From a bacterium (GTDB taxonomy: Bacteria; Hinthialibacterota; Hinthialibacteria; Hinthialibacterales; Hinthialibacteraceae): a DNA stretch of 64,000 nt. Shown here in pieces: positions 17,280-31,300 of the stretch; positions within the stretch are counted from its first letter, which is position 1; each line of letters starts with the position of its first letter. Made by a program: the position numbers and the translations under genes. The notes beneath the pieces are model-generated. The model made no database searches. It saw only the letters and a program-made list of their open reading frames with translations, and was not told the origin of the DNA. The stretch spans positions 62,148 through 126,147 of the forward strand of contig CAXXSM010000036.1 of assembly GCA_963663405.2 (NCBI GenBank). The letters are read 5' to 3'.

Positions 17280-17299
17280 TTTTCTTTGATAGAGGGATC

Positions 17300-17410
17300 G
17301 TGTGATTGTCTGAACCATGATTCGAAGGATTATAGGATTTCCATGATTAATAATTACGCAGGCCTGAGCCGTGCGTAGGCGGCTTGAATCATGCAAATCG
17401 AGAAAATCAA
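17300..17410 (+). repeat. Palindromic TGTCTGAACC-type dispersed repeat (copy A, 3' arm truncated)
   Basis: GTGTGATTGTCTGAACCATGATT...GGATTTCCATGATT...AGGCCTGAGCCG...GAAAATCAA, matching 20734-20855 in direct orientation. Confidence 0.8.
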
Positions 17411-17670
17411 TGACGTGTTAGCTTAAAAGTGCCTATGCTATGTAATTATGGTGTTTTCAAAGGTTATATCTTCTCCTCAATAAAAAGGGATTGGTGAATA
17501 TTTGTATTGTAATGATTCGTTCCATTTTTTTTGTGAATGTGAATATAGTATTGACATGAAATTCATTTTGATGATAGTATTGATTTACATTTTTTTCTGT
17601 TGACTTACTTTTTTTAGATCCATAAAGTGGATCTGTCTGGGTTGAGTGAGGGAAGTTTTTCCCAATACAG

Positions 17671-17750
17671 TCAGATAAAGCCAAACCTGTTGTGAAACAG
17701 GGACGGAAAGCTGCGGGTCTTGTTTATAAAGAGACAGCCGGGCCGCCTGA
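17671..17750 (+). ncRNA. Cyclic di-GMP-I (GEMM) riboswitch aptamer
   Basis: GCCAAACC...GTGAA...GGGACGGAAAGC...GGGTCT...GACAGCCGGGCCGCC matches the GEMM-I consensus; TCAG/CTGA closing stem; lies in the 5' UTR of the gene at 17823. Confidence 0.9.
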
Positions 17751-17778
17751 GTGAGTTTGTAGGCGGCTCGGTTTTTTT
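17738..17778 (+). terminator. Intrinsic terminator overlapping the 3' side of the aptamer (expression platform)
   Basis: CCGGGCCGCCT (17738-17748) pairs with AGGCGGCTCGG (17761-17771), followed by T7. Confidence 0.85.
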
Positions 17779-17822
17779 ATGTTTCAATAAAAATTGACAT
17801 TCCATTATCAAGGAGGCTGTTC

Positions 17823-20492
17823 ATGTTAGAGAGAACGGTTCGTTTCATCACAGTATTGTTTGTTTCCGTATTTTTTACATCTTTAGCGAGCGCAGCGGTG
17901 CCGGGGATTATTGGGTACCAGGGACGAGTGATGGTGGATGGATCACCCTTTGATGGGACGGGACATTTCAAGTTCGCGATCGTGACATCCACCGGTGAGA
18001 TTTTATGGAGCAACGATGGGACGGCCGGGACGAATCTCGTTCCCGGTTCCGCGGTTTCGCTTTCCGTGAACGAAGGATTGTTCTCGCTTGGATTGGGGGA
18101 TACGAATCTGGAAAAAATGGATTATGTGATTCCGCCGGATATTTTCAGTAATCCGGAAGTCTATCTGCGGGTCTGGTTCAGTTCGGATGGATCAACGTTT
18201 GAGCAACTCTCGACCGATCAGCGGATTCTGGTTGTCGGCTATGCGATGGAAGCGGCGCATGCGGAAGAAGCCGATCAGGCGGCCACATCGAATCACGCCG
18301 ATGTGGCGGATGCCTTAACCGGTTTCGATATCACAACGCTCTGGGGGCTGACAGGCAACGCGGGGACCACGCCCGGAACTGATTTTCTGGGGACAACGGA
18401 TAATCAGGCTCTCGAATTCAAAGTGAACAGTCTACGCGCGATGCGGCTGGAACCGAATCCCTTCTCTCCCAATGTCATTGGTGGAAATCCTGGAAACAGC
18501 GTCACAGCGGGGATGTATGGCGCTAGTATTGGTGGTGGTGGACAGGGAGGACAACTCAATCAAGTAACCGCCCATTTTGGAACCATCGGTGGTGGCCGAA
18601 ACAATACGGCAGGAGCTGTCGATTCGACCATTGGAGGAGGATTTACTAATACCGCATCCGGTGAAAGAGCTACCGTTGGTGGAGGACAAGGCAACACCGC
18701 GAGTGGGAATTATGGAACCGTCGCGGGAGGGCAAAGCAACACCGCGGAAGGGAATTATGGAACTGTACCGGGAGGATTGGATAACACTGCGGAGGGAATC
18801 TTAAGTTTCGCGGCGGGCCGAAGGGCAAAAGCGTTGCACGATGGTAGTTTCGTCTGGGGAGACAAAACCAACGCAGATATTGAATCCACAGGGGAAAATC
18901 AGTTTGTGGTTCGGGCCAATGGGGGGACGTTTATTCATGGAAATATGGATGTTTCGGGAACGGCTGAAGTGGATCAACTTACTGTTACAGGAACGTTAAC
19001 CGCTGATACATTCAAAGCGAAAGATTCTGATCACGCCGATGTAGCGGATACCCTAACCGGATTCGATCCCAATTCAAAATGGGGACTCTCTGGTAATACG
19101 GGAACGATTCCGGGGACTGATTTTCTAGGCACAACGGACAACCAGGCTCTTGAATTCAAAGTGAACAATCAACGCGTGATGCGGCTGGAACCAAACTCCT
19201 TCTCTCCCAATATCATTAGTGGGAATCCTGGAAACAGTGTTACAGCAGGGATGTATGGCGCCACTATTGGTGGTGGTGGGCAGGGACAGGGAAATCAACT
19301 TAACCAAGTAACCGCCCATTATGGAACCATCGGTGGTGGCCGAAACAATACGGCAGGAGCTGTCGATTCGACCATTGGAGGAGGATTTACTAATACCGCA
19401 TCCGGTGAAAGAGCTACCGTTGGTGGAGGACAAGGCAACACCGCGAGTGGGAATTATGGAACCGTCGCGGGAGGGCAAAGCAACACTGCGGAGGGAATCT
19501 TAAGTTTCGCGGCGGGGCGAAGGGCGAAAGCGCTGCATGATGGAAGTTTCGTCTGGGGTGACAAAACCAACGCGGATATTGAATCCACAGGGGAAAACCA
19601 ATTTGTGGTGCGCGCGAATGGCGGGACGTTCATTCATGGAGATCTCACTGTTACCGGAAATGTATCGGTGCCAGCGAAATGGCCAAGTGGATTTGAGGTA
19701 ATTACGGTCAATCTACCTAATCTAGCGGCCGGTTCCAAACCATTACAACTTGTCAATATAAACGCGGGGGTATTTCGAATAGGTAGCCTGAACAGCGATC
19801 CGGATGCAGACTCTTTGGAGAAACCTCAACATAGTGTATTTATCAGTAAGGATTATTACATGGGGAAGTATGAGGTGACGCAGGCGCAGTGGGAGGCGGT
19901 GATGGATGGGAATCCATGGGGAATCAGTACAACTCCTTCGTATTTTAGCGGGAACGACCGTCCTGTGGAGATGGTTAGTTGGTACGATTGCGCGCGATTT
20001 TGCAATCGATTAAGTGAGATGGAGGGAAGGACGTCCGTGTACGATCTGTCAACGTGGGCGATTGATTATGAAGCGGATGGGTATCGGATGCCGACGGAGG
20101 CGGAATGGGAGAACGCGTGCCGCGCGGGGACTACGACGCGGTATTATTGGGGGGATGATTTGAGTTATACGGAGATCGGGGATTACGCTTGGTATTATTA
20201 TAATTCATCGTCACAAACACATGAAGCCGGTTTAAAACTACCAAATGCCTGGGGCCTATATGATATGAGTGGAAATGTCTGGGAATGGTCTAATGATTGG
20301 TATAGTAGCACGTATTATACCATTGAAAATAAAATCGATCCAACCGGTGCGGCAACGGGCTCGCTCCGTGTGCTTCGCGGTGGCGGTTGGGGCTACGGCG
20401 CCGAGGACTGCCGGTCTGCGTTTCGCTACTACTACTCGCCCGGCAACCGCGCCAGCTCCGTTGGCTTCCGGCTCCTGAGGTCTTACCCTTGA
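17823..20492 (+). CDS. Secreted fibre/adhesin-like protein with Gly-rich 14-aa repeats and a C-terminal FGE-sulfatase (CLec-fold) domain; probable DGR target
   Basis: AGGAGG RBS, signal peptide, YQGR...GLFS...YA N-domain, xTVGGGxxNTAxG repeats, then YEVTQAQW, PVEMVSWYD, RMPTEAEWE, NAWGLYDMSGNVWEW, RVLRGGGW, GFR. Confidence 0.9.
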   Translation: MLERTVRFITVLFVSVFFTSLASAAVPGIIGYQGRVMVDGSPFDGTGHFKFAIVTSTGEILWSNDGTAGTNLVPGSAVSLSVNEGLFSLGLGDTNLEKMDYVIPPDIFSNPEVYLRVWFSSDGSTFEQLSTDQRILVVGYAMEAAHAEEADQAATSNHADVADALTGFDITTLWGLTGNAGTTPGTDFLGTTDNQALEFKVNSLRAMRLEPNPFSPNVIGGNPGNSVTAGMYGASIGGGGQGGQLNQVTAHFGTIGGGRNNTAGAVDSTIGGGFTNTASGERATVGGGQGNTASGNYGTVAGGQSNTAEGNYGTVPGGLDNTAEGILSFAAGRRAKALHDGSFVWGDKTNADIESTGENQFVVRANGGTFIHGNMDVSGTAEVDQLTVTGTLTADTFKAKDSDHADVADTLTGFDPNSKWGLSGNTGTIPGTDFLGTTDNQALEFKVNNQRVMRLEPNSFSPNIISGNPGNSVTAGMYGATIGGGGQGQGNQLNQVTAHYGTIGGGRNNTAGAVDSTIGGGFTNTASGERATVGGGQGNTASGNYGTVAGGQSNTAEGILSFAAGRRAKALHDGSFVWGDKTNADIESTGENQFVVRANGGTFIHGDLTVTGNVSVPAKWPSGFEVITVNLPNLAAGSKPLQLVNINAGVFRIGSLNSDPDADSLEKPQHSVFISKDYYMGKYEVTQAQWEAVMDGNPWGISTTPSYFSGNDRPVEMVSWYDCARFCNRLSEMEGRTSVYDLSTWAIDYEADGYRMPTEAEWENACRAGTTTRYYWGDDLSYTEIGDYAWYYYNSSSQTHEAGLKLPNAWGLYDMSGNVWEWSNDWYSSTYYTIENKIDPTGAATGSLRVLRGGGWGYGAEDCRSAFRYYYSPGNRASSVGFRLLRSYP
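18291..19640 (+). repeat. Internal duplication of the fibre module (about 18291-18940 and 19029-19640)
   Basis: Both copies run from HADVAD.LTGFD to ANGGTFIHG; the core 18579-18742 / 19323-19485 appears identical at nucleotide level. Confidence 0.9.
20358..20492 (+). other. Putative DGR variable region (VR)
   Basis: Abrupt shift to GC-rich, adenine-poor codons; NNC triplets ggc-tac-ggc, tac-tac-tac and gcc-agc-tcc between invariant RGGxW, CRSA.R and GFR anchors. Confidence 0.7.
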
Positions 20493-20501
20493 GTGCTTTT
20501 A

Positions 20502-20715
20502 CCCTATAGGGCTTGGAGGGAGAAAACTCGGAGAACGGAATAGGTAGAGAATGGAATCTGGAATGAACGGGCGGCGGCGAAGCGATAGCCGGCGTCCGCC
20601 CGTTAAGGCTCCGGCGCAAGCGCCGGTTCATGGAAGATGGAATGAACGGTGGTAGAAGGAAAGATTTGGAGTTCATAAACCGGAGAGGGGCGCTGGGGAG
20701 ATATATCTCCCCAGC
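20502..20715. other. GC-rich hairpins downstream of the putative VR
   Basis: CCCTATAGGG (20502), AACGGGCGG...CCGCCCGTT (20566-20604), CCGGCGCAAGCGCCGG (20611-20626) and a perfect 24-bp palindrome at 20692-20715. Confidence 0.7.
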
Positions 20716-20733
20716 TCGCGCGGGATTTGAATA

Positions 20734-20855
20734 GTGTGATTGTCTGAACCATGATTATAAGGATTAAAGGATTTCCATGATTTAAAATCAAGTAGGCCTG
20801 AGCCGCGCGATGGCGGCTTTTATCAAGTAAATCATGAAAATCAAGGTTCAGACAA
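20734..20855 (+). repeat. Palindromic TGTCTGAACC-type dispersed repeat (copy B, complete)
   Basis: Ends TTGTCTGAACC (20740) and GGTTCAGACAA (20845-20855); body matches 17300-17410. Confidence 0.85.
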
Positions 20856-20911
20856 AATATTCGGTGGGCTATAAAACTGATCCACCCTATATCAACAAAG
20901 GAAAATAAAAA

Positions 20912-22030
20912 ATGAAATCGAAAATTATAACCATAGCATTTCTACTGTGTATTATTCTATACCCACCCGGATTACATGCCGGAGTAGAGATCAATCCCAA
21001 CGGGATAGGCTCAGGAGCCCACGCGTCAGGCGGAGGCTCCATCTCAATGTTCGCCGCGCTGGAGACAGGAGGAACATCTTCGTCAGGGAATGGTCGAGTA
21101 ATAATTCATTCCGGTTTCATCGGGCAACTATCAACCGGCGGAAGCAACACAGCGCCCGTTGTCGATCCAAATATCGATGTGCTCGTGACCGGCTATCAAG
21201 CCGATTTAACAGCAATCTTCACCGATCCAGACGCGTCTGACACACATACCGCCTCGATTGATTGGGGAGATGGATTTACATACCCAGGTGTGGTCACACC
21301 TGGAACCGGTGGAGGTACCGTGACGGGAAACCATCTCTATACGGGAGATGGGATCTACACAATTACAGTGACGGTTGAGGATTCACCGGGTGAAACCGGA
21401 TCGGCTGATGTGACGATCTGTATCTTCTCGTATCTAGTCAACAGTGATGGAACGGGAGGCGGTGTCAACAAATACTGGCCGGGAACGCTCGGATATTTCG
21501 ACGCATGGTGGACCGCGACGGATTACGCAGGCGGTGATTCGAGCAATCCAGCGTATCCCTTCTATCCCGCCTGGTGCGCGTATTTGGATACGCTCATCCA
21601 GCTGGGCGTATGGTACAACAATGTCGGAATGTATTCCTCCCTGACCGATACGTGTTCATTGGTTGACAATCCAGAAAACCTGGACTTGGTGAATTACTTA
21701 TTATTTAAATATCGTCTTGGAACGTATATCCCATATGGCGCAACCAATAGAGAAATCCAGGCGGTGATTTGGCGGCTCCTCTTTAACAGCAGTTTTAAGT
21801 GGGATGAGACCAACCATGTGCCGGATGGAGGAATTACGTGGGATATTGGCATCGCTGATCAAGTCTATACGAATGTGTTAGGTGGATCGCTTCCCCCGTA
21901 TGATAGTAATGACACACTTCCTATCGTTGTTATCATCGATTGCGGCGATCAGGTGAATTTGATTGAGATACCTTATTACATTTTTGTTGAATTATTATCA
22001 CGTGGGATCGTGGTGGATGGGTGTCTGTAA
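20912..22030 (+). CDS. Secreted protein with PKD domain and putative Cys-Gln thioester domain
   Basis: Signal peptide; PKD motifs IDWGDG and HLYTGDGIYTITVTVED; C-terminal region with YPAWC, DLVNYLL and EIQAVIW. Confidence 0.75.
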   Translation: MKSKIITIAFLLCIILYPPGLHAGVEINPNGIGSGAHASGGGSISMFAALETGGTSSSGNGRVIIHSGFIGQLSTGGSNTAPVVDPNIDVLVTGYQADLTAIFTDPDASDTHTASIDWGDGFTYPGVVTPGTGGGTVTGNHLYTGDGIYTITVTVEDSPGETGSADVTICIFSYLVNSDGTGGGVNKYWPGTLGYFDAWWTATDYAGGDSSNPAYPFYPAWCAYLDTLIQLGVWYNNVGMYSSLTDTCSLVDNPENLDLVNYLLFKYRLGTYIPYGATNREIQAVIWRLLFNSSFKWDETNHVPDGGITWDIGIADQVYTNVLGGSLPPYDSNDTLPIVVIIDCGDQVNLIEIPYYIFVELLSRGIVVDGCL

Positions 22031-28322: not shown

Positions 28323-31300
28323 CTACTCCTCATAGAAATGCAAGAACACCGGATTCTCATTTGTAACGTCAATCTCACCATACAATGAATGCGTAATCGT
28401 AGCGGGAAGATTGTAGACCGTATCCCCCGCCGTTCCAATCACTCTACGGCTTCAATCGGCTCTTCTGTAATTTGTACCCACCGCGTATTGTTCGCGCGGG
28501 GAGGATCGCCGATGATGAATTTATACAAATGCGCTTTACCGGGATTTTCTTGTTGACGGTGAATTGCGCCGTTTCCGGGGACGCGGTGTAGAAATAAGAC
28601 ACATTGTTCTTGTACCGCCATATCGCGCCCCATTTATCCCCATCGGCTGTGGTCCATCCGCAGGTCATCGTATTGTCTTTCTCCGGATCATCATCCTCCC
28701 GCCGATCACTCTGCGCGGGAATCCAGACTTGATACTCCTCATTAAGGCCTAAATTCCATCTTCCGGCGCTCCGGAGGAATGGAGCGCCTGACCGATGGTC
28801 CGAATCACCCGGTCCGAGCCGGATTCAGCCGTTCTGAACCATCCTGTATCATAGGAGGTGTCTCCATTGTAATGGTGAACCCAATAGAGGCAGTAATCCC
28901 AATGACTCCCCGATTCAGACTGCATCGTCGCATCCATCAAAATCGTACGCAGGTAATAAATGCCCTGTGTGCGTTCGTTGGCGTCCGCGCATCCATATAC
29001 ACTGTTTGGATTGGGCTAAGCCCATATTCAGAGACAGCGTAGCGGGGATAGTAATCATAGAAATGACAGATGGTATCCAGCGTATCAAGGCGTTCGATCC
29101 ATTCCTTGGTTCCTTCCCCTTCATGCAGATATTCAGGGGGCGCGATACCAGGATAACCATTGATGGCGATAATCTCAGGCAATAATTCGGTTGATCCATC
29201 CGCTGTTTCTATAATTTTCTGGATAAATCCATTGAGAAACGCCAGCCCGGTCCGGCCGTTGTCCTCTTTCCAAGGACTCGACACACCTTCCGTGATAAAA
29301 TCAAGGATCGGTGACTTTCGATGCTGCCACTCAAGATAGGCAGGTTCGGCCACCGTGTTTTGATCCGCTCACGCGCGGCGAGATAATAATCCGCGAAGAT
29401 CTGACCCGCATAGAAACAATTGCCATCCAGATATCCCCATTTTTCCTCTTCTTCATTGCCCAGCTGCACGCCGATTAACGTCGAACCAATCGCGCCGGGC
29501 ACAGCCAGTTCGATTAATTCCAAACGGTATTCCACCCAATCCGCGTAGCCTTCAGGATCGCAGGTATACCGCCGCTCGAATTCATCCGTATTCTGATCGT
29601 ATGCGATTAAATCCAAGTTCCACCAGCAGTCACTGCATGTCAATGGATGAAGGTCGCAGTCGATCCCATAATGGAGATTCCCACAACCGAACAGCATAAT
29701 CATTTTCATCCCACGTTCCTGCGCTTTTAGAACCATATCAATATTGTCCCGGAACGTTTCTTGCGCAAAGTAACGGATGATTGTTTGATTGTCATCGTTC
29801 ATCTCATCGATATCATCTTCCGTAGGCTCATAACTCGCGTAACTCTGAATACTCGCGCCGAATTGAGGGACCGATAGAGCGGGGATTGGCGTCTCAGTGG
29901 ATTCAGGAACAGGTTTATCATATTCGGGATCTACCATGACAAGACGGAGTGATATCGATGTGGAACTGATAAACGGCTGCATTTTACCGCGGGCGGCCGA
30001 ACGGCAACCTACTGGATCGCCATTCCAGAATCCGCCGCGTATCACACGCGAATCCCCCGAAACAGGCCCGTCAGGATCGGTCTTCGAACCGGTTTCATAC
30101 GGTCCATACCAATCATGGCACCATTCGTAACAACCGCCGCTCATATCATAGATTCCCCAATTGTTCGGTTTCTCTCCCCAACGGGCCGTGTCCGGCCATA
30201 GGAGTTGTACCAGTTCCAGGCGTACGCGTCGATCTGTTCGTATGTGGGATCGTTCCCCCAATAGTACCGTGTCGCCGTTCCTGCGCGGCAGGCGTGCTCC
30301 CATTCCGCTTCCCTCGGCAACCGGAACTCGCCCAATCCCATATCGTTCAAGTTCTGAATAAATTCCAGACAGTCATACCAATTCACCGATTCTACGGGAA
30401 GGTTTTCATCTCCCCCGAAAAATGAAGGATTCTTCCCCATCACCGCTTCCCACTGCGCTTGGGTGATGAGATATTTACTAATATAAAATCCTTTGGTGAG
30501 AATCACTTGATGCTGAGGCCCTTCTTCCTCAAGCCGCTCTTGTTCATTGTCCGGACTGCCCATCAGATACGCCCCTGCCGGGACATAGACCATTTCTAAA
30601 GGTTTTACATCTTCAGAAAGATTGGGGATCTCAATCACAATCGTCTCTCCCCCTTGCTTGGGAAGAGTCGGCGTTGGACTGACATACGGCGTATCCGTCG
30701 GCGTCAACGTCGGAGTCGAGGTAGGGAGCGGTGGAGATGTATGTGTTGGAATCGGCGTTGGTGTAGTAATCCCATAGTTTTCCGGAACACTCAGGCGCGC
30801 CGGATCGAGTTCATCATTATTTAAGAAATCCGCGTGATAGAATCTCTCAATATCAAAGAGATAAACATCGAAATTATCCAAATATACTGTAAGCGGATCG
30901 TCCTCACTCGTGTTGACGATTTGAATCAATGGTTGGAAACCAGTGGAGGGAGGCACAAAGAATGTCGAAAGCCTCTTATATTGATTCACGTAATACGATC
31001 CATCGCTCGCGGCGTGAGTAGAAATAAACACCGGTGAATCCTGCCCGACAGTGGCGATCGTAATCGATGAGTGCGCCGCGTCCGATCGAACCGAACAGCG
31101 GATCATGGCCGCATTTTCCGTTTCAATCATCGGCCCGAAAATCATCAATCCTTCCCCGGATCGGCGGTAATAATCGCGCCAACGCCATCCGTGGCGTCTT
31201 CAAACGCTTGGTCCATTGGAATAGCGCCGTATTCGATTTCCGCTCGCGGATATGTGTCAAATCCAGCCCCCATCACGGTGAATTCATCGCCATCGGAAAA

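Follow-up and report, generated by a model that had tools for sequence, protein, structure and literature searches.

A candidate riboswitch-controlled locus for a surface fibre and a thioester-domain partner in a bacterium of the Hinthialibacterota

Here we describe a locus comprising a riboswitch, a gene for a secreted fibre and a gene for a secreted partner protein, found in a 64,000-nucleotide stretch of DNA from a bacterium of the Hinthialibacteraceae (the window; contig C36, positions 62148-126147, of an assembly of 8.44 Mb in 170 contigs, 82% complete). Its parts recall several described systems. Among the variable proteins of diversity-generating retroelements (DGRs), those with a C-type-lectin fold include Mtd of Bordetella phage BPP-1 and TvpA of Treponema. 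The closest described relatives of the fibre are the mosaic adhesive trimer (MAT) fibres of Bdellovibrio bacteriovorus, in which a constant base is combined with S74 and non-S74 tips (Caulton 2024, PMC10769870; sources cited by PMC number are used here in excerpt). The MAT base domain presumably binds a yet-unidentified surface element (PMC10769870), and the excerpts of the mosaic-adhesive-trimer literature that were examined name no base partner. Thioester domains (TEDs), which resemble the tail of the partner, are said in the excerpt of PMC4450167 to be found exclusively in Gram-positive bacteria, and the abstract of a 2026 report (PMC13685950) still calls them Gram-positive. Riboswitches for cyclic di-GMP (c-di-GMP) control adhesins and pili in Clostridioides difficile (PMC6200980).

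Our analysis suggests that the window rather probably carries a two-gene surface-fibre unit under the positive control of a second-messenger riboswitch. Computed here were the aptamer with its terminator, the domain composition of both proteins, the differences confined to one variable region, the fold and motifs of the thioester domain, the gene order and the predicted contact between the two proteins. The partner is best read as an adaptor with interchangeable anchors, because its thioester domain is swapped for a dockerin in a sister locus and for a YLP-box tag in Chloroflexota. We did not find in print the combination of a c-di-GMP-class riboswitch, a MAT-like fibre, a DGR-type tip and a thioester domain.

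The fibre, its partner and the predicted contact at the base

The aptamer, an 889-aa open reading frame (ORF; 17823-20492), a 419-nt spacer and a 372-aa ORF (20912-22030) lie on one strand (+) and in this order. The features of the unit are the following.

17671-17751, + strand: c-di-GMP-I-type aptamer, GGC variant (RF03167, RF01051)
17736-17780, + strand: expression platform, a 14-bp terminator hairpin followed by a U tract (minimum-free-energy folds)
17823-20492, + strand: fibre gene, 889 aa (ORF; AAGGAGG 8 nt upstream of the ATG)
17895-18317, + strand: fibre base domain, residues 25-165, similar to the MAT N-terminal domain (NF053851)
18531-19664, + strand: two UspA1-head-like trimeric stalk segments, residues ~237-421 and ~510-614 (PDB 3pr7, 3ntn)
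19746-20480, + strand: tip with FGE-sulfatase / C-type-lectin fold, residues 642-886 (PF03781, E 2.1e-49)
20349-20460, + strand: variable region (VR), with 31 sites differing from the paralogue on contig C6 (ungapped comparison)
20461-20605, + strand: conserved element past the VR, ending in a G+C-rich hairpin (105 nt identical to C6; hairpin read from the sequence)
20912-22030, + strand: partner gene, 372 aa (ORF)
20981-21136, + strand: N-terminal module of the partner (N-module), residues 24-75 (tblastn, alignment, hhalign, complex prediction)
21146-21409, + strand: PKD domain (PKD_4) of the partner, residues 79-166 (PF18911, E 2.8e-7)
21431-22027, + strand: diverged thioester domain of the partner, residues ~174-372, with Cys222, Gln283/Trp287 and Gln347 (model, fold search, invariant columns)

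The first 24 residues of the fibre are signal-peptide-like and lead into the base domain, which matched NF053851 (Bdello_MAT_N) with 24.6 bits (E 1.9e-5) and is thus below the curated cut-off of 60 bits for this model. The same model is matched by 20 out of 26 members of the base-domain family (E <= 0.1), with a best E of 4e-13. Outside this genome the domain was found in 24 loci of Anaerolineae, other Chloroflexota, Candidatus Sumerlaeota, Verrucomicrobiota and one gammaproteobacterial bin; all 24 were fetched, an RNA-family scan covered 23 of them (L086 was left out) and a fibre ORF was called in 23 (all except L081). The stalk segments matched the head of UspA1 (3pr7, E 8.6e-20; 3ntn, E 5.6e-8). 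Sister fibres on contigs C110 and C29 have the same base and end in Peptidase_S74 domains, while other members carry FGE tips. FGE-sulfatase was the only domain returned by Pfam for the window fibre, and no autotransporter membrane-anchor domain was found in it. The identity of this protein as a trimeric autotransporter was accordingly ruled out, as it has no C-terminal anchor domain and ends in a lectin fold.

The partner begins with a signal-like N-terminus, which is followed by ~50 residues rich in Gly and Ser and ending in GFIGQL. This module has three tblastn sites in the genome, each of them in the gene right after a riboswitch-controlled fibre (C36, C6 and C110). The C-terminal cargo of these proteins varies, being a PKD domain with a thioester domain on C36 and C110 and a Dockerin_1 domain on C6, in a genome with 10 cohesin and 18 dockerin matches over cut-off. 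No module-bearing gene neighbours the fibre on C29. An orthologue of the window partner, 93% identical, was present in another sample, and a search of the genome contigs database with the whole partner returned no relative. Weak NCBIfam matches to the pilus proteins PamT and PamR of the candidate phyla radiation (CPR) were far below their cut-offs and were set aside against the excerpted description of these proteins (PMC13278184).

A small secreted protein of the same layout follows the fibre, as the next or next-but-one gene, in 9 of the 23 external loci with a fibre ORF, and the external modules and those of this genome align end to end with no large gaps. Several of the partners from Chloroflexota carry the YLP box, a putative sorting motif (NF050076), one over the cut-off and two just under it. 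In the YLP-box loci (L064, L070, L075, L076 and L077) the motif is either terminal or in the middle of the protein, with more domains after it in two. When a profile of the external modules was run against the 74,717 six-frame ORFs of the genome, it matched the partner on contig C39 alone (E 0.0046). The first part of a fibre with long collagen-like Gly-X-Y repeats is cut off by the start of that contig (C39:1-2100), and the partner comes next, with its profile-matching module fused directly to a thioester domain that has one frame break inside it. The C39 partner bridges the modules of this genome and the external ones. A regular expression composed after viewing the external modules, and therefore only descriptive, occurs in 8 out of 24 external loci and in none of the 74,717 ORFs of the genome.

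To predict a complex, three base domains (with an alignment of 26 rows) were combined with one module (12 rows), both with our own alignments. The prediction was passing, with ipSAE interface scores of 0.64, 0.66 and 0.58 compared to 0.00 for the best of three controls. The local confidence (predicted local distance difference test, pLDDT) was 60-66 for the partner and 91-92 for the other chains, and the runs shared at least 67% of their contacts. In the calibration of the predictor this mark was reached by 116 out of 157 solved complexes and by 2 out of 215 mismatched pairs; with our own alignments and three copies as input, these rates apply only approximately. A single predicted module touches all three base domains via three successive stretches, and on the base the contacts involve the conserved GYQGRV strand (residues 6-16 of the piece) along with residues 91-116. 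This model supports a module plugging the fibre base, with one partner per three fibre chains.

A preliminary description of this DNA, made from the sequence alone, had pointed to a secreted fibre-like protein with a C-type-lectin end resembling a VR, and to a partner whose Gly/Ser-rich N-terminus resembles proteins found beside such fibre genes. The former reading agrees with the 889-aa ORF, its signal-like N-terminus, the PF03781 match and the confined differences from C6 (see below), and the latter with the modules of the same layout in external loci. The conservation of the fibre-partner order, which it had proposed as a check, holds in three loci of this genome and recurs in other phyla, and the suggested multimer prediction of a fibre trimer with the partner N-terminus gave the positive result described above.

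The thioester tail, the riboswitch and the variable tip

The last ~200 residues of the partner have at least 18 paralogues in the genome, C-terminal on unrelated secreted proteins that include leucine-rich-repeat (LRR) proteins, a subtilase and a giant of 2904 aa; a profile search of the genome with this domain gave 23 ORF pieces. The alignment of 19 paralogues contains invariant Trp-Cys, Ile-Gln...Trp, later Gln and Glu columns. An AlphaFold model built on the paralogue alignment was compared by VIA-align, with no prefilter, with 48,161 representative chains. The top 8 matches were all thioester domains (Z 9.0-6.1, root-mean-square deviation 3.4-4.5 over 137-158 residues), and the next match had a Z of 3.3. 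They belong to the Gram-positive adhesins Cpa, CpTIE, FNE, BaTIE, TIE86, SfbI, a pneumococcal domain and SaTIE. The top 10 Foldseek matches were likewise all thioester domains, with weak E-values (best 1.2e-2).

Three traits are reported for the TED family (Walden 2015, PMC4450167): one strand holds the motif with the Cys, a TQxx-hydrophobic-W motif lies in a central helix, and a later strand contributes a Gln. In solved domains this Cys and Gln are 129-153 residues apart (PMC4450167). In the window family the Cys motif is an invariant WC in all 19 paralogues, located in model strand 63-65, where Trp replaces the Y/F/L that precedes the Cys in the known motif ([YFL]C-hydrophobic-hydrophilic). 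The helical motif is IQAVIW, with invariant Q and W, in model helix 122-134, with Ile replacing Thr. The invariant Gln347 (Gln190 of the model) stands beside strand 191-197, 125 residues past Cys222, and the fit to the motif is loose. A profile search of 1.84 billion representatives extended the family to 891 proteins (E <= 0.001), whose relatives by name, among the matches listed, are from Omnitrophota, Balneolales-like bins, Dehalococcoidaceae, cyanobacteria and Bacteroidetes. Since the genome encodes Omp85-family proteins, its owner has an outer membrane. The tail is accordingly classified as a diverged thioester domain outside the group where the family is known, in which a thioester bond may form. 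The preliminary description had recognised a co-oriented secreted PKD protein with thioester-like Cys and Gln motifs, and both elements were recovered, as the PKD_4 domain and as a motif-bearing domain whose model matches thioester domains only. As for the covalent attachment that it had envisaged, the fold with its three motifs, the last of them a loose fit, speaks in its favor, although the predicted contact at the base makes tethering of the fibre likelier than binding of a target.

The only Rfam family over threshold in the whole window was RF03167 (c-di-GMP-I-GGC), which scored 70.8 bits (gathering score 59, E 9.4e-15). At the same site RF01051, the canonical model for c-di-GMP-I, is passed as well (62.6 bits, gathering score 35), and the c-di-GMP riboswitch that the preliminary description had placed ahead of the fibre is thereby borne out at 17671-17751. 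When the leader was folded alone, 17736-17749 paired with 17760-17773 to form a terminator hairpin followed by a U run. Because the 5' arm of this terminator is the 3' part of the aptamer, the two structures are mutually exclusive; a ligand-held aptamer would therefore let transcription proceed, and in this predicted ON-switch design ligand binding should turn transcription on. The expression at high c-di-GMP suggested earlier is in line with this competing terminator, while the identity of c-di-GMP as the ligand is a step that we infer.

Six copies of the aptamer were over threshold in the genome (C36, C6, C110, C29, C64 and C85), and folding gave the same platform design in 6/6, with 3' terminator arms that differ in sequence between copies. 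Five of them (C36, C6, C110, C29 and C64) precede an ORF with the fibre base domain, and the sixth (C85) a 326-aa secreted protein with a diverged thioester-like domain. Conversely, 5 out of 6 base-domain ORFs of the genome follow an aptamer. The genes behind these copies thus encode surface fibres and adhesin-like proteins, which are typical content of c-di-GMP regulons. Within the order the aptamer is present in 5 out of 26 genomes (this one counted), and in the related genomes it precedes other secreted proteins instead.

Some of these loci have features of their own. On C64 (13723-16803) the fibre ORF behind the riboswitch stops after 74 residues, which are 92% identical to those of the window fibre, and two transposase-like ORFs come next; an insertion appears to have cut this fibre locus. 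The aptamer on C85 (28319-30375) has the gene for the 326-aa protein on one side and, on the other, an open frame of 2791 aa that matches cohesin and dockerin models. On C87 (12034-16609), a thioester-like domain either ends a 1137-aa ORF or comes directly after it, and ~3.5 kb upstream of this domain is a short base-domain ORF that lacks a riboswitch.

When the end of the fibre gene was searched against the genome, a single further site came up, on contig C6 (88% identity), where an aptamer, a 753-aa fibre and a partner are arranged as in the window. The two fibre genes differ at 31 positions within 112 nt, at 1 position in the preceding 126 nt and at none in the following 105 nt; farther upstream they diverge in ordinary fashion. 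Out of the 31 differing sites, 26 are at codon positions 1 or 2, and the variable sites correspond to residues 843-880. The block is G+C-rich inside an A+T-rich gene, and writing A at all 31 differing sites of the alignment yields an Asn/Thr-rich template of the usual DGR kind. Past diversification of both tips by mutagenic retrohoming from one template is well supported by this pattern of substitutions, and the element at 20461-20605 is a candidate target-recognition element of a DGR.

With a word size of 7, a blastn search with the VR returned only the two VRs and a third, unrelated FGE tip, on C72 (69% identity). The latter (C72:1-1000) is an FGE-sulfatase tip ending in GFRLVRSYP at the end of the contig, with a VR-like stretch at 69% DNA identity, and may be the target of yet another template. 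A search for VR orthologues with the fibre tip, swamped by proteins with multiple FGE domains, found no near-identical fibre.

Genome setting and neighbouring sequences

The unit is flanked by genes for secreted glycoside hydrolases and peptidases and for LamG, FG-GAP and PKD proteins (18 ORFs scanned). A phage origin was ruled out, none of the 18 scanned ORFs being phage-like. The RecA of the genome is at most 74% identical to its matches, which come from many phyla. Two further features belong to this setting.

17551-17580, + strand: promoter-like site (TTGACA, 18-nt spacer, TAGTAT; 10/12 positions; consensus scan)
20731-20860, no strand assigned: copy of a dispersed repeat in the fibre-partner spacer (many blastn matches across contigs)

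Across the region the consensus scan gave no more promoter-like sites than it did in shuffled controls. The same kind of scan, a method unable to settle co-transcription, found neither a promoter nor a terminator on the + strand of the fibre-partner spacer. Copies of a repeat of ~115-130 nt flank the locus (20731-20860 and ~17297-17410), and dozens of others, often in tandem pairs, are spread over many contigs; by its sequence it looks like a small non-coding mobile or repetitive extragenic palindromic (REP)-like element, and the copy in the spacer is probably not part of the system. Also in the spacer, past the VR, is a 24-nt G+C-rich hairpin (CCGGCGC...GCGCCGG, 20606-20629) that is present in the window and absent in the C6 paralogue; it is the sole indel between the two within an otherwise near-identical stretch. 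A second FGE-sulfatase gene in the window (29209-31148, - strand) reads as two overlapping ORFs and is therefore probably broken by a frameshift. About 45 FGE-sulfatase domains were detected in the genome by tblastn with the fibre tip.

Proposed mechanism, alternatives and comparison with known systems

In the mechanism that we propose, the ligand (most likely c-di-GMP) would hold the aptamer closed and so block the terminator, allowing transcription of the fibre gene and probably of the partner gene too. The fibre would be exported and would trimerise, with a MAT-like base, two UspA1-head-like stalk segments and a C-type-lectin-fold tip that points outward. The ligand-binding surface of this tip would have been diversified by mutagenic retrohoming directed at adenines, its template repeat being located elsewhere or lost. 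The partner would be exported as a monomer and would place its ~50-aa N-module on the three-fold axis below the base, in a ratio of one module to three chains; through its PKD spacer and thioester domain the fibre base would next become covalently linked to an amine, one that we place on the surface of the producing cell or in the matrix. What we infer in this scheme is the ligand, the joint transcription of the two genes, ongoing DGR activity, the making of the thioester bond and the attachment target.

Tethering of the fibre is likelier than target binding because the predicted contact is at the fibre base, and tethering to the producer is favored over covalent capture of a target because all three kinds of tail (thioester domain, dockerin and YLP box) are protein-fixing devices. 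A further and more tentative suggestion, to which we give somewhat less than an even chance, is that the partner represents the long-sought holder of MAT fibres: one chain whose three short strands plug the base and whose tail is interchangeable, the tail being in this case a covalent thioester domain that serves a DGR-written fibre under a second-messenger cue. If this is true, thioester domains would be a general covalent sorting device outside Gram-positive bacteria. At any rate, the partner with its predicted interface would offer a candidate for the surface element, yet to be identified, that the MAT base domain presumably binds. The analysis also widens the range of thioester domains to outer-membrane bacteria and points to anchoring as one of their roles. 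Given their small size and solubility, the pieces lend themselves to direct tests.

Several results weigh against this reading, and alternative explanations draw on some of them. As to the tail, the Pfam TED family (PF08341) matches 0/19 paralogues even at E <= 10, the window domain included, and the thioester profile found nothing meaningful among PDB sequences (best E 0.22). The model is of middling confidence (pLDDT 67, predicted TM-score 0.73), and the window copy reads WCAY, with a Tyr after the Cys where more than 90% of the paralogues have an Asp (WCAD). Because the Pfam model is passed by none of the paralogues but, over the matched stretch, by 3 of the 46 distant proteins scanned (from 150 listed of the 891), the domain is filed as a diverged relative of TEDs rather than as a Pfam member. 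Even if its chemistry holds, it might be the business end of the system: the partner would ride on the fibre and bond a foreign target (prey, host or particle) once the tip has found it. The thioester domains of Gram-positive adhesins bond host proteins such as fibrinogen (Walden 2015, PMC4450167). However, the base at which contact is predicted is remote from the variable tip, sister loci and other phyla have anchors (a dockerin or a sorting tag) in the same position as the domain, and the C-terminal position of the domain on at least 18 unrelated secreted proteins is a distribution like that of anchoring domains, all of which makes this role unlikely compared with tethering. It is more improbable still that fibre and partner are independent neighbours, the partner being just one of ~20 secreted thioester-domain proteins and the contact an artefact. 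The spacer is indeed long (419 nt), with hairpins and the dispersed repeat, and the interface is predicted, not measured. The sequence evidence for homology between the modules of this genome and the external ones is modest as well: the external-module profile misses the three modules of the riboswitch-controlled fibres at E <= 10, and a profile-profile comparison (hhalign) gave a probability of 53% (E 1.3e-4 over 44 aligned columns). On the other hand, the module occurs in this genome only after fibre genes (3/3 tblastn matches, plus C39), it stays while the cargo changes between loci, the pairing recurs in other phyla, and all three controls of the prediction scored 0.00.

The control and the variability of this unit invite other explanations too. 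The preliminary description had proposed to test whether the order of riboswitch and fibre is conserved across genomes, which it is not: a c-di-GMP aptamer was present in none of the 23 external fibre loci scanned, and the base domain, the thioester domain and the module were absent from all 12 riboswitch-downstream regions of three related genomes (E <= 0.01). The link between riboswitch and fibre is confined to this genome, and the pairing of fibre and partner is widespread. It is conceivable, though somewhat doubtful in our estimate, that the switch senses a nucleotide signal other than c-di-GMP and that expression is not tied to the sessile high-c-di-GMP state. The GGC variant, which reportedly was defined by Weinberg in 2017 (PNAS) and for which we know of no established ligand, may prefer another one, as its model outscores the canonical model at this site (70.8 vs 62.6 bits) and Rfam keeps it as a family of its own. 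A variant of the c-di-GMP-II class is reported to discriminate isomers of cyclic GMP-AMP (cGAMP; PMC13715770, excerpt). The canonical model was nevertheless passed well above threshold, and the controlled genes are those of surface fibres and adhesin-like proteins, so c-di-GMP is kept as the most likely ligand. A comparable weight, short of the preferred reading, may be given to the view that the VR is a relic of a DGR that wrote both paralogous tips and has since been lost, which would leave the specificity of the fibre fixed. A DGR elsewhere in the genome had been postulated at the outset; its footprint is visible in the 31, 1 and 0 differences described above, yet the word-size-7 search of the 82%-complete assembly gave no template repeat that matches. 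Only two RVT_1 genes are present in the assembly, one for a group II intron maturase and one for a DGR reverse transcriptase on C100, within a cassette of bAvd, reverse transcriptase, template repeat and two targets. A DGR enzyme was thus located, but this cassette was rejected as the source of the window VR, since at the nucleotide level its template aligns with its own VR and not with that of the window. Contigs from four public runs (depth about 2-4) show only the two paralogous VR versions, and because of that depth they are silent on rare variants and on variation within populations. What speaks against a relic, apart from the limited completeness of the 170-contig assembly and this shallow depth, is that the 105 nt past the VR are identical in both loci, as expected for a recognition element under selection.

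Compared with described systems, the window fibre family shares with MAT fibres secretion, a constant N-terminal base and interchangeable C-terminal tips, some of them with an S74 chaperone. The window copy is a distant relative (24.6 bits against the cut-off of 60) and not a member by the curated threshold, and it differs in the C-type-lectin/FGE tip with its DGR-type VR, in the UspA1-head-like stalk, in the riboswitch and in the neighbouring candidate for a base partner. As in other DGR-diversified C-type-lectin proteins, the VR occupies the C-terminal end of the domain and is sharply bounded, with a conserved stretch and a G+C-rich hairpin behind it; unlike known DGR cassettes, including that on C100, it has no cognate template repeat or reverse transcriptase nearby or elsewhere in the 82%-complete assembly. 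The segments of the stalk that match the UspA1 head are a likeness to trimeric autotransporter adhesins (UspA1, YadA), from which the fibre departs by having no Pfam membrane-anchor domain and by carrying a lectin-fold tip at the C-terminus.

The tail of the partner has the same fold as the TEDs of Gram-positive bacteria (Cpa, SfbI, CpTIE, BaTIE), with the strand Cys, the helical Q and W and, as a looser fit, the C-terminal Gln at similar spacing. It is C-terminal rather than N-terminal, has neither an LPXTG anchor nor an isopeptide stalk, belongs to a host with an outer membrane and is too diverged in sequence for the Pfam model. With Clostridioides difficile the locus has in common a c-di-GMP-class aptamer in the leader of surface-protein genes; the aptamer variant, the phylum and the kind of protein are different, and the six copies found here make up a small fibre regulon.

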